The notes beneath the pieces are model-generated. The model had not been told where the DNA came from, made no database searches, and saw nothing but the letters and a program-made list of their open reading frames with translations. Of a stretch of DNA of 64,000 nucleotides, positions 13,393-50,000 are shown piece by piece (within the stretch, counting starts at the first letter, position 1; each line of letters opens with the position of its first letter). Position numbers and translations under genes: made by a program. Where the stretch lies: the IMG/VR virus record IMGVR_UViG_3300035210_000189, positions 1 through 64,000 of that record. One strand, written 5' to 3'. The DNA is from a virus.

Positions 13393-13469
13393 CTCTGCGT
13401 AGCTCAGTTGGATAGAGTGCTCGCTTCCGAAGCGAACGGTCGTTGGTTCGAATCCAACCGTAGAGGCCA
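13393..13469 (+). tRNA. tRNA-Arg(CCG)
   Basis: Acceptor CTCTGCG/CGTAGAG, D-arm GCTC-AGTTGGATA-GAGT, anticodon loop TTCCGAA, T-arm GTTGG-TTCGAAT-CCAAC, encoded CCA; 77 nt. Confidence 0.95.
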
Positions 13470-22920: not shown

Positions 22921-22939
22921 TTTTTTGATGAAAAAGGTG

Positions 22940-22968
22940 TTGCCAAAAACCATGAATTGTCGTATAAT
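22940..22968 (+). promoter_or_regulatory. Sigma70 promoter of the ncRNA-tRNA unit
   Basis: TTGCCA-17 nt-TATAAT; predicted start ~22975 coincides with the 5' strand of the terminal stem. Confidence 0.8.
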
Positions 22969-22974
22969 GGCCTC

Positions 22975-23330
22975 GTTGTAAAGCAATAAGGTAATCTTGG
23001 AAAGTGGGCTTAAAAGCAGCCATCTTTTAATGAGTAGAGCGGTTGCCACAGGTGTTTGGGATACAGTGATGGTAAGCATCGGGTTCAAGTAATTTAGCAG
23101 TTATTTGAAGGTATCGGTGACAAGTGAGCCACGGTTTGTCGAAATTGAATCCACATTAAAGTAGATTTTGCAGATCAAAACGTCTCAGCCAAAAACGCCC
23201 AGTTCTTGCAATAATGTAAGAATTTGCCGTGGTTGTGGTCTTGGTACAGTAATGAGACACCCCAGAAATGGTAAGGTCGAGTTCTCTTTTGGCGTAATAG
23301 CACACCATGATTATGATTGTTTTTTGCAAC
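22975..23330 (+). ncRNA. Structured ncRNA containing a split 23S rRNA H43-H44 (L11-binding) mimic
   Basis: GTGGGCTTAAAAGCAGCCATCTTTTAA and GGCGTAATAGCACAC match the two halves of E. coli 23S ~1055-1104; closed by GTAATCTTGG/CCATGATTAT and by the terminal stem GTTGTAAAGCAAT/ATTGTTTTTTGCAAC; nested internal helices. Confidence 0.8.
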
Positions 23331-23334
23331 AAAT

Positions 23335-23403
23335 CTGCCGCTAAGGCTGACCTTGGCCCTCTAAAAGCTAAAGGGAACGGTTCGACTCCGTTGCGGTGGA
23401 CCA
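23335..23403 (+). tRNA. Atypical short-D-arm tRNA with CUA (amber) anticodon and G3:U70 alanine identity
   Basis: Acceptor CTGCCGC/GCGGTGG, A73, CCA; T-arm AACGG-TTCGACT-CCGTT; anticodon loop CTCTAAA; D-arm AGG-CTGA-CCT; 69 nt. Confidence 0.75.
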
Positions 23404-23412
23404 ATTTAAGAT

Positions 23413-23448
23413 AATGCCAACTCATAGTGATGTGATGTTGGCATTTTT
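23413..23448 (+). terminator. Intrinsic terminator of the ncRNA-tRNA unit
   Basis: AATGCCAAC...GTTGGCATT followed by a T run. Confidence 0.7.
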
Positions 23449-23477
23449 ATTGTTTTTATTTTATTTATATGATATAA

Positions 23478-48914: not shown

Positions 48915-50000
48915 ATGTCTACGTTTAAAGCGACAGTTCTTCCAGTCATTGTTGAGCCACATCCTAACGCTGATGCGATTGAACTGGCTCGCGTCGGGGA
49001 TTTCTTCTCGATCATTCAAAAAGGATACCTGAAAACAGGTGACTTGGCTGTTTATATTCCAGAAGGTGCCCTTGTTCCTGATTTCATTCAAGAAGAAGTG
49101 GGTTGCCTTGGTAAATTGGCAGGTTCCAAGAAAAACCGTTTGAAGCCTTCCATGCTTCGTGGTGTTCTTAGTCAAGGTCTTTGCTTTAAAGCCCGTGATG
49201 GCTGGGCTATCGGTGACGATAAAGCCGAAGAATTGGGTATCATCAAGTATGAAGCTCCTATTCCAGCCTCCATGAATGGTGAGATTTCTAACGTGGGCAT
49301 TGAAAACACTTTCCACTTTGACATTGAAAACGTCAAGCGTTACCCTGATGTATTGGTTGATGGTGAGCTTGTATCCATGACTGAAAAACTTCATGGCACG
49401 TTCACTATTGCTGGTAGCGTTTATGGTAAAGACCCTATTCCACATGTGGTTGATGGTCGCTCATTCGTGAGTAGCAAAGGTTTCTTTAACAAAGGCTTGG
49501 TGCTTCGTGACAACGAACAAAATGCTCATAACATTTACATTCGTGTTGCTAAAAAGTTCAATCTTTATGAGATTACAGCCATCCTTGCAGATCGCTACAA
49601 AACCAATGCTTATATTTCGGGCGAAACATTTGGTGCTGTTCAAGATTTGACTTACGGCTTGGATGCTGGCGTATTTGATTTCCGTGTCTTCAACTTGTTC
49701 CTTGGTTCGCGTAGTGATGCAAAAGGCGTGTTCCCAGTGGATGATGATGTGCTTGAAGCCTTGCTCACTGAGTTCAACTTGAAACGTGTTCCTGTGCTTT
49801 ACAAAGGCCCATACAGCAAAGAAGTCATGTTGAAATACACTGATGGGTTGGAAACTTACTCTGGCAAAGAAACACACATTCGTGAGGGTCTTGTTGTGGA
49901 ACCGCTTGTTCAGCGTCGAGATCCAGCCATTGGCCGTGTTGTCTTAAAAAGCGTTTCAACTGCTTACCTTTCTCGCAAAGGCGGCACAGAACTAAACTGA
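48915..50000 (+). CDS. RNA ligase, DRB0094 (Rnl2-like) family
   Basis: N-terminal HPNADAIELA..G...GDLAVYIPE, LRGVLSQG; motif I TEKLHGT, GE.FG, REGLVV, LKSVS..YL. Confidence 0.92.
   Translation: MSTFKATVLPVIVEPHPNADAIELARVGDFFSIIQKGYLKTGDLAVYIPEGALVPDFIQEEVGCLGKLAGSKKNRLKPSMLRGVLSQGLCFKARDGWAIGDDKAEELGIIKYEAPIPASMNGEISNVGIENTFHFDIENVKRYPDVLVDGELVSMTEKLHGTFTIAGSVYGKDPIPHVVDGRSFVSSKGFFNKGLVLRDNEQNAHNIYIRVAKKFNLYEITAILADRYKTNAYISGETFGAVQDLTYGLDAGVFDFRVFNLFLGSRSDAKGVFPVDDDVLEALLTEFNLKRVPVLYKGPYSKEVMLKYTDGLETYSGKETHIREGLVVEPLVQRRDPAIGRVVLKSVSTAYLSRKGGTELN

Follow-up and report, generated by a model that had tools for sequence, protein, structure and literature searches.

Does a phage encode a free-standing copy of the GTPase-associated centre (GAC) of 23S rRNA, and what might such an RNA do? 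The question is raised by a locus in the window, by which we mean the whole stretch of 64,000 nt that we analyzed (positions 1-64,000 of the virus record IMGVR_UViG_3300035210_000189, which is 152 kb in full). Window positions 22975-23334, on the plus strand, most likely specify a stable non-coding RNA of ~360 nt; the RNA itself is a prediction, and we infer its transcription. No credible open reading frame (ORF) was found in 22921-23477, and the GC content is 0.42-0.455 across the unit region versus ~0.30 in the flanks. An earlier note on this DNA had described a free-standing structured RNA and not a fragment of an rRNA operon. The homologs, which conserve the fold and covary, uphold this description; nor is the RNA an mRNA leader.

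Correspondence with the GTPase-associated centre of 23S rRNA

We compared the unit with the 23S rRNA gene rrlH of Escherichia coli (L119). Window positions 23007-23030 are identical to 23S positions 1062-1085 at 22 of 24 nucleotides, and GCGTAATAGC of the window is identical to 23S 1091-1100. When the unit was compared with E. coli 23S by BLAST, only these two segments matched beyond chance. The comparison places the equivalents of G1054 and G1055 at 22999 and 23000, that of U1060 at 23005, that of A1067 at 23012 and that of A1088 at 23033; the equivalents of G1090, A1095 and C1104 are found at 23291, 23296 and 23305. The H43-like side, GGAAAGUGGGCUUAAAAGCAGCCAUCUUUUAAUGAGU, thus spans 22999-23035, and the H44-like side, GGCGUAAUAGCACACC, spans 23291-23306. 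As had been claimed beforehand, the equivalents of A1067 and A1095 are both A in the window, and the 1058:1080 pair is compensated, being A-U in the window and U-A in E. coli.

The closing helix, P1, takes the position of the top of 23S helix 42 (H42). It is formed by GTAATCTTGG (22991-23000) and CCATGATTAT (23305-23314), which pair at 9 of 10 positions; this inner helix, already noticed earlier, covaries family-wide. Within it lies a mimic of H43 with the 1082-1088 linker (23001-23033), delimited by the 23S comparison, by alignment to a covariance model of the family (R1, see below) and by covariation of the lower stem. A variable domain of 257 nt follows in the H44 bulge (23034-23290), and its basal stem covaries across the family. 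The mimic of H44, GGCGUAAUAGCACA (23291-23304), was placed by the 23S comparison and the R1 alignment. The prediction that the window RNA rebuilds the fold of the H42 top, H43 and H44 (E. coli nucleotides 1051-1108) is supported by these features.

An Rfam search detected no other rRNA in the window, and the large-subunit (LSU) rRNA model RF02541 gave no match at the gathering score or at E ≤ 10. Together with the BLAST comparison, this bears out the claim that the locus is not a fragment of an rRNA operon. A partial LSU match had nevertheless been expected from Rfam. It was obtained, below threshold, for the relative in Pseudomonas phage Astolliot (26.4 bits versus a threshold of 50, model positions 1081-1156), but not for the window itself.

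The phage RNAs and the bacterial GAC (H42-H44) have H43/H44 sequences that are alike nearly letter for letter, the same secondary structure, and the tertiary signatures 1082:1086, U1060/A1088 and G1071/C1072 in common. In the known structure, G1071 and C1072 make base triples with H44. Unlike the ribosomal domain, however, the phage RNA is free-standing and phage-encoded, with no rRNA around it; it has a short private helix in place of H42 and carries a domain of 25-443 nt in the H44 bulge. Moreover, the phage family shows looser constraint on A1067, on A1095 and on the H44 loop.

Conservation and covariation of the fold across a family

Two sequence patterns led to ~190 loci in IMG/VR phage contigs. 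The H44-side word GGCGTARTAGCACACC occurred in 116 IMG/VR stretches, 97 of which carried the H43 word 80-470 nt upstream; the remaining stretches were truncated loci or chance matches in GC-rich genes. The H43-side word was found in at least 120 IMG/VR stretches, most of them new. By regular expressions, 123 distinct units were delimited, with inserts of 25-443 nt. The covariance model R1 was built from a seed of 34 short-insert units that excluded the window. R1 matched 86 of 97 second-scan loci, and it matched window positions 22987-23318 with 101.2 bits (E = 1.3e-27).

The window RNA has every feature that defines the family. The covarying closing helix flanks GG...CC; positions 23001-23035 hold the H43-like hairpin with a UUARAAGCA-type loop and then a YUAANGAGU linker; and positions 23034-23306 hold the insert after A1088, with its G.U, U.U and covarying stem, and then UUUGGCGUAAUAGCACACC. 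The context is that of a phage, as the virus record contains virion-protein and RNA ligase genes. A single copy of the family was found in the 152-kb record by the R1 search.

Pairs were counted in 77 non-redundant units, the conservation of loops and single bases was assessed in 123 units, and statistics were computed on alignment A2. Covariation was strong in the closing helix, in the lower stem of H43 and where the insert begins and ends in its basal pairs. In the closing helix, pair 1053:1106 is UA48/AU9/CG8/GC4 and pair 1052:1107 is GC24/AU16/UA15/CG9. In the lower H43 stem, 1057:1081 is AU60/CG15 and 1058:1080 is UA38/AU18/GC15. The tertiary-type pair 1082:1086, known from rRNA, is CG36/UA25/AU10. 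Paired cells amounted to 92.2% in A2 versus 71.2% in shuffles, and 195 cells had changed on both sides, compared to 67.8 in shuffles. The covariation score was 0.532 versus 0.137 for shuffled alignments; none of 500 shuffles reached 0.532, and slid-partner controls stayed at or below 0.19. Covariation of the H43/H44 nucleotides among homologs, which had been named beforehand as a test of the proposal, is therefore present.

Single bases were conserved to different degrees. U1060/A1088 was retained in 76 of 77 units, and G1071/C1072 was invariant (123/123). The A1067 equivalent was A in ~85% of units and G in ~13 units, and the A1095 equivalent was A in ~92%. The H44 loop was GUAAUA in 61 units and GUAACA in 23, the other variants including GUAGUA, GUAAAA and GUAGCA, while the H43 loop was the same as that of E. 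coli in 62 of 123 units. On the ribosome, A1067 and A1095 touch thiostrepton and EF-G. Selection thus appears to preserve the three-dimensional fold and to hold the bases of these contacts less tightly. Since A1067 and A1095 are freer than the fold-determining bases, the pattern fits selection for the fold or for uL11 binding over selection for EF-G or thiostrepton contacts.

Distribution and novelty

BLAST against cultured phages returned one partial match, in Pseudomonas phage Astolliot, where it lies 13 nt before tRNA-Met in a gap that carries no annotation. R1 found full units in Pseudomonas phages pf16 and Astolliot, Aeromonas phage 4_4572, Xanthomonas phage XacN1 and Cronobacter phage GAP32, and the unit is unannotated in the GenBank record of each. 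BLAST also indicated Serratia phage BF, the Erwinia pEa_SNUABM phages, Kaldavass, XbC2, XaC1, CBB, Milchi and UNO-G1W1. The carrier contigs are mostly large (median ~90 kb, many of 150-430 kb, among the 80 matches listed). In bacterial contigs, taken as one genome per species, the H44 word gave three real units among the 120 matches listed, in a Clostridiaceae strain, a Ruminococcus metagenome-assembled genome (MAG) and an uncultured MAG; the other 117 of those listed were chance matches, mostly to a coding gene conserved in betaproteobacteria. In essence, this is a viral family.

Two candidate members were rejected. Paenibacillus phage Pd_22F, which at first resembled a minimal member, carries a true 23S fragment (R1, 60 bits). 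This stretch (L272:1150-1330, accession MZ092003) is genuine Firmicutes-type 23S sequence and represents host DNA or an assembly artefact. Its linker is GAGUGCG, and the GAGU of the family is hence closer to Gram-positive-type rRNA than to the GAAAGCG of E. coli. The abundant noncoding RNAs defined by RNA sequencing in PA5oct were also considered, but R1 found no member in the PA5oct genome.

Some phages carry two separate copies of the family, namely L031 and L076 on a 193-kb contig and L052 and L147 on a 169-kb contig. In Astolliot, a divergent GAC-like unit (L001:1062-1390) lies in tandem upstream of the canonical one, and a similar arrangement is seen in L034. The divergent Astolliot unit starts with GGGCUUAGAAGUAGCCAU and ends with GACCCGUAGAGCAUUUGGUGUCAUAACACGCC, and R1 sees only its H43 loop (13.5 bits). 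A near-identical relative of the L058 and window RNAs is present in L244, a 1.86-Mb metagenome contig (Ga0308158_10000001) that fits the IMG/VR label of a provirus and an integrated or very large element.

No family of Rfam 15 matched the window or eight relatives, at the gathering score or at permissive E-values, and no description of the family was found in full-text literature searches. The earlier remark that no described family with this architecture was known holds as far as Rfam is concerned. The phage GAC-mimic RNAs thus appear to be a new family and not a described one.

Relation to known RNAs

Ribosomal-protein leaders are likewise RNAs that copy an rRNA protein-binding site outside the ribosome, and the L10(L12)4 leader mimics the adjacent H42 region. 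In contrast to the phage RNA, which stands alone in tRNA arrays or ends in a terminator, these leaders are cis-acting parts of cellular mRNAs and loose mimics. We know of no uL11-binding leader, the L11 operon being under L1 control. No Rfam leader family, such as L10_leader, matched the window or the eight relatives, and no ribosomal-protein gene lies downstream. Such rRNA-mimic leaders, including the L10 leader (RF00557) and the L1, S8, S15 and L20 sites, are the subject of a review by Meyer 2018, as cited in PMC10931766.

The GOLLD and ROOL RNAs are also phage-encoded, large, structured and located in tRNA clusters; unlike the phage GAC RNA, they do not mimic rRNA. Their Rfam models did not match the family units. 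The search was validated by a separate GOLLD RNA that it detected in L124 (1582-2047, 184.6 bits), 100 nt upstream of the GAC-mimic unit at L124:2147-2288 and in the same tRNA array.

With decoy and mimic RNAs, of which 6S RNA is one, the family would share the concept of an RNA that imitates a cellular nucleic-acid ligand and captures its protein partner. Further examples are the pseudo-ToxI of phage PhiTE (PMC3475682) and the tRNA-mimicking bacterial Y RNAs (PMC4201824). The phage GAC RNA differs from all of these in imitating an rRNA domain and in its fold, and its partner is putative.

The insert domain

The insert exits at a constant point, from H44 directly after A1088 (the 1088-1090 bulge). 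Its base is ordered as G.U, U.U and then a 4-bp stem, with a single U before G1090. Among the 77 units, 77, 74, 71 and 58 form the first to fourth pair of the basal stem, and compensatory changes are numerous; in the window AGAG (23036-23039) pairs with CUCU (23284-23287). The words AGAGC/GTTCT, proposed earlier as a stem, are present, but they are 2 nt out of register with this family-wide stem. The other stems suggested for the insert fared unequally. Complementary words do exist, GGTGTTT/AGACACC among them, and the hairpin at 23201-23224 covaries, being retained through differing sequences in L109, L180 and L248; several others found no support in relatives. The words AGCCACGG/CCGTGGTT are present but their pairing is broken in L109 and L180, and TTGCCA/TGGTAA conflicts with a covarying GNRA hairpin.

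The inserts of the window and L058 agree at 93% identity, and parts of the window insert recur in L044, L109, L180 and L248. In place of AGCCACGG/CCGTGGTT, an alternative helix, GCCAY/GUGGU plus GG/CC, is retained in five of five cases. The word GCCGTGGTNNNGGTCTTGGTA yielded mostly chance matches in GC-rich coding DNA and added L248 as the sole further relative.

A large class of inserts (class I) has a 33-nt 3' arm in common, AA-UGA-GAC-ACC-CCA-GAAA-UGG-UAAG-GUC-GAG-UU, which in the window occupies 23251-23283. RNAalifold analysis of 16 class I units gave two short covarying stems (192:213, GC9/UA6; 186:220, AU9/GC7; 187:219, AU7/GC6). Between the stems are a tandem-G.A loop (UGA/GAN) and an internal loop of invariant sequence (ACC/UAAG); a hairpin of the form CCN-(GNRA or UAAC)-N'GG caps the arm. 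The UAAG core is reminiscent of the 11-nt tetraloop receptor and might point to self-association.

Class II inserts (L134, L136, L091, L095, L367 and the upstream copy of L001) have a recurring word, GGGGAAGGACAAGUACAGUUUG, and the 3' end GACCCUUAGAGCA. The recurring word loosely resembles the 5' strand of 23S H42, UGGGAAGGCCCAGACAG. At the other extreme are minimal members with inserts of 25-28 nt, such as L085, which is 105 nt in total.

Sarcin-ricin-loop hairpins in some members

A hairpin of the sarcin-ricin-loop (SRL) type is present in seven class II members with long inserts (L082, L145, L172, L186, L400, L427 and L429). Its loop is ACAGUACG(R)(R)AGGAAC, that is, the bulged-G plus GNRA motif of the sarcin-ricin loop, in the extended form ACAGUACGRRAGGAAC; examples are L186:2569-2583 and L145:7562-7576. 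The stems differ from member to member yet compensate (GCCCGC/GCGGGU, CCCCA/UGGGG, GUGC/GCAC, UUCCA/UGGAA and GCCCAC/GUGGGU). Among the loci scanned for it, the strict word AGTACG[AG][AG]AGGAAC was found in four places, always within family inserts, versus a chance expectation of ~10^-3 or fewer for inserts estimated at ~20 kb in total. The largest SRL-bearing units are ~520 nt. We also compared 122 unique inserts with E. coli 23S by BLAST, with reversed and shuffled controls, and the SRL words alone stood out. Small excesses near 23S 2260-2440 were set aside, as they look like generic GNRA hairpins.

On the ribosome, the GAC and the SRL jointly form the docking site of translational GTPases. 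The presence of both in one RNA is the strongest hint that function, rather than mere shape, is being mimicked. In L427, the SRL hairpin is retained although the H43 and H44 loops have diverged. An SRL-like reading of AGUAAUGAGACACC in the window was rejected; this segment has no C-G-closed GNRA loop, and the family alignment gives a different motif.

Expression signals and tRNA context

A sigma-70-type promoter, TTGCCA-17-TATAAT, is located at 22940-22968 on the plus strand, in agreement with the earlier note. It has 11 of 12 matches and is the top site of the region; its -10 box is also present in the relative L058. The transcript is expected to start at ~22975. Downstream, an intrinsic terminator at 23414-23449, made up of ATGCCAAC...GTTGGCAT and then a T run, forms a hairpin in the minimum-free-energy fold and is retained in L044 and L058. 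A simple scan overlooks it because its loop exceeds 8 nt.

Elsewhere in the family, the units are associated with tRNAs. In a set of 81 distinct units, a same-strand tRNA lies no more than 1 kb away from 45; a tRNA starts 7-24 nt downstream of 16 units and ends 3-60 nt upstream of 19, and almost no opposite-strand tRNAs are found near them. The pf16 unit, for example, occupies the gap between tRNA-Asn and tRNA-Pro. From this placement in tRNA arrays, we infer co-transcription with the tRNAs and release by RNase P at the 3' end and by tRNA 3' processing at the 5' end.

The window lineage has its own promoter and terminator, and a tRNA-like element with an encoded CCA (23335-23403, plus strand) lies 20 nt past the unit. 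The earlier note had taken this element for an amber tRNA. The anticodon loop is indeed CUCUAAA, with CUA at 23361-23363, and the structure is conserved: in L044 and L058, the acceptor pair G6:C67 is changed to A:U and a G.U of the anticodon stem to A-U, compensatory changes which show that the structure is real. The acceptor stem has 7 bp with G3:U70 and A73, and the T arm is canonical. However, only 3 bp plus 4 nt are left of the D arm. ARAGORN finds the element only in mitochondrial mode (-mt) or below its default threshold, as Pyl(cta); the Rfam tRNA model RF00005 gave no match to 23335-23403 at E ≤ 10, and the element does not qualify as a canonical tRNA. Nor was any sign of amber recoding seen in the window, where read-through of TAG adds little ORF length and TAG terminates 6 of 109 long ORFs. 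The element is probably an RNase P site that frees the upstream RNA. It is possibly a working suppressor, a role as processing signal being at least as likely, and it could be chargeable by AlaRS or serve as an RNase P signal only.

Possible functions of the RNA

The reading that we favor, tentatively and at a little under an even chance, is that the RNA acts in trans as a decoy of the uL11-binding, GTPase-associated centre. According to this model, the RNA would be transcribed from its own promoter, and RNase P would cut it free at the 5' end of the following tRNA-like element, as for members flanked by true tRNAs. It would then fold like the ribosomal domain and act as a decoy during infection. 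The likeliest partner would be host uL11, and sub-families with further arms or an SRL may bind stalk proteins or translational GTPases. The outcome would be an altered behavior of the host translation or stringent-response machinery. The isolated 58-nt fragment 1051-1108 reportedly folds by itself and binds uL11 and thiostrepton in vitro (the Draper, Wimberly and Conn structures). The decoy model draws on this behavior of the isolated domain and on the fact that the fold determinants are the conserved part of the family. It is also suggested by the minimal members, which barely exceed the 58-nt domain, and by the genomic placement, which predicts tRNA-like expression. In a broader form, the family may constitute a class of phage ribosome-mimic RNAs, copies of a factor-docking site (the GAC, in some cases with the SRL) that capture uL11, stalk proteins or GTPases or absorb attacks aimed at it, and so would hand phages an RNA tool for acting on host translation and the stringent response; this generalization is quite possible, although we hold it to be somewhat short of probable.

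Several observations weigh against a uL11 decoy. The abundance of uL11 equals that of ribosomes, so titration by a decoy would require expression at tRNA-like levels. The insert joins H44 beside A1088 and may clash with uL11, and the closing helix is without the kink-turn of H42, to which uL10 binds. In the window's record, no homolog of L11 or L12 was found that might serve as a dedicated partner. The 1082:1086 position is U.U in the window, compared to A-U in the nearest relative. Because the H44 loop, A1067 and A1095 vary beyond what is seen in real rRNA, the RNA is not constrained like the ribosomal site. Finally, the SRL is confined to a small minority of members, and no SRL word occurs in the window.

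A different kind of mimicry would be defensive, the RNA offering a surrogate site that soaks up a host antiphage effector, toxin or modifier aimed at the GAC or SRL and so spares the ribosomes, in parallel with phage tRNAs that replace those cut by anticodon nucleases. The units do lie in phage tRNA arrays beside other counter-defence-type RNA functions, the family is phage-restricted, and the SRL of some members is a classic toxin target. RNA ligase genes occur as well, at 48915-50000 in the window (PHROG 968, E = 3e-30) and, as a 2'-5' RNA ligase gene, directly upstream of the XacN1 unit, but this proximity to RNA-repair genes is anecdotal. We consider this role unlikely. A1067 and A1095 should be invariant if recognized by a nuclease or modifier, and both vary; to our knowledge, no bacterial defence effector is aimed at H43/H44. 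In another reading, the GAC fold would be no more than a compact, very stable tertiary scaffold, possibly stabilized by uL11, that holds and protects the insert; the activity would be borne by the insert or arise from higher-order assembly, as proposed for GOLLD and ROOL. The exposed factor-contact bases do vary, inserts are large, lineage-specific and internally conserved, the class I arm covaries and sets a GNRA loop beside the UAAG/ACC loop, and a GOLLD RNA neighbors the L124 unit. Yet the core alone must function, because the minimal members are nearly insert-free; the core loops stay nearer to rRNA than a generic scaffold requires (half of the H43 loops, 62/123, equal that of E. coli); and what one sub-family has gained is not an arbitrary domain but the SRL, a second element of rRNA. 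A scaffold is a distinctly unlikely explanation.

It is less likely again, and in our view improbable, that the RNA binds EF-G, EF-Tu, IF2, RF3 or RelA directly, as a sponge or recruiter that alters elongation or the stringent response. The seven members that unite GAC and SRL mimics would supply the GTPase-binding site of the ribosome, but most members, the window included, are without an SRL, and the factor-contacting A1067 and A1095 are not invariant. On the ribosome, the factors depend for their binding on the L7/L12 stalk and the 30S subunit as well, and GAC RNA in isolation is a weak binder of factors. That the unit is simply non-functional, as a decaying fragment of host 23S rRNA, or is a cis-acting leader of the ribosomal-protein type, has hardly any probability left. 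True rRNA fragments do occur in phage records, as in Pd_22F, but across ~190 phage loci only the 58-nt domain is found, with a private covarying closing helix and a constant insert bulge; there is no flanking rRNA, and tRNAs or a terminator follow, not a ribosomal-protein gene. The covariation and distribution exclude the pseudogene and leader readings for practical purposes.

Should the RNAs bind uL11 or factors, this would be the first known case of viral RNAs that imitate a functional ribosomal centre. It would bring to light an unrecognized layer of phage control over translation or (p)ppGpp signaling, or one of counter-defence, and would help to account for unannotated GC-rich gaps in the tRNA arrays of large phages. 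The hypothesis is directly testable, as the family is present in culturable phages of Pseudomonas, Aeromonas, Xanthomonas, Cronobacter, Serratia and Erwinia. Its members form a natural series, from ~105 nt to ~520 nt with an SRL, that dissects what folding and recognition of the GTPase centre need.

Other features of the locus

The earlier note had extended the closing helix outward, from 22975 to 23330. The strands of this possible outer helix (22975-22987 with 23316-23330, plus strand) are complementary in the window, but the helix is a weak candidate, as no covariation for it was found in L058 or L044. Elsewhere in the window, a canonical tRNA-Arg(CCG) is located at 13393-13469.

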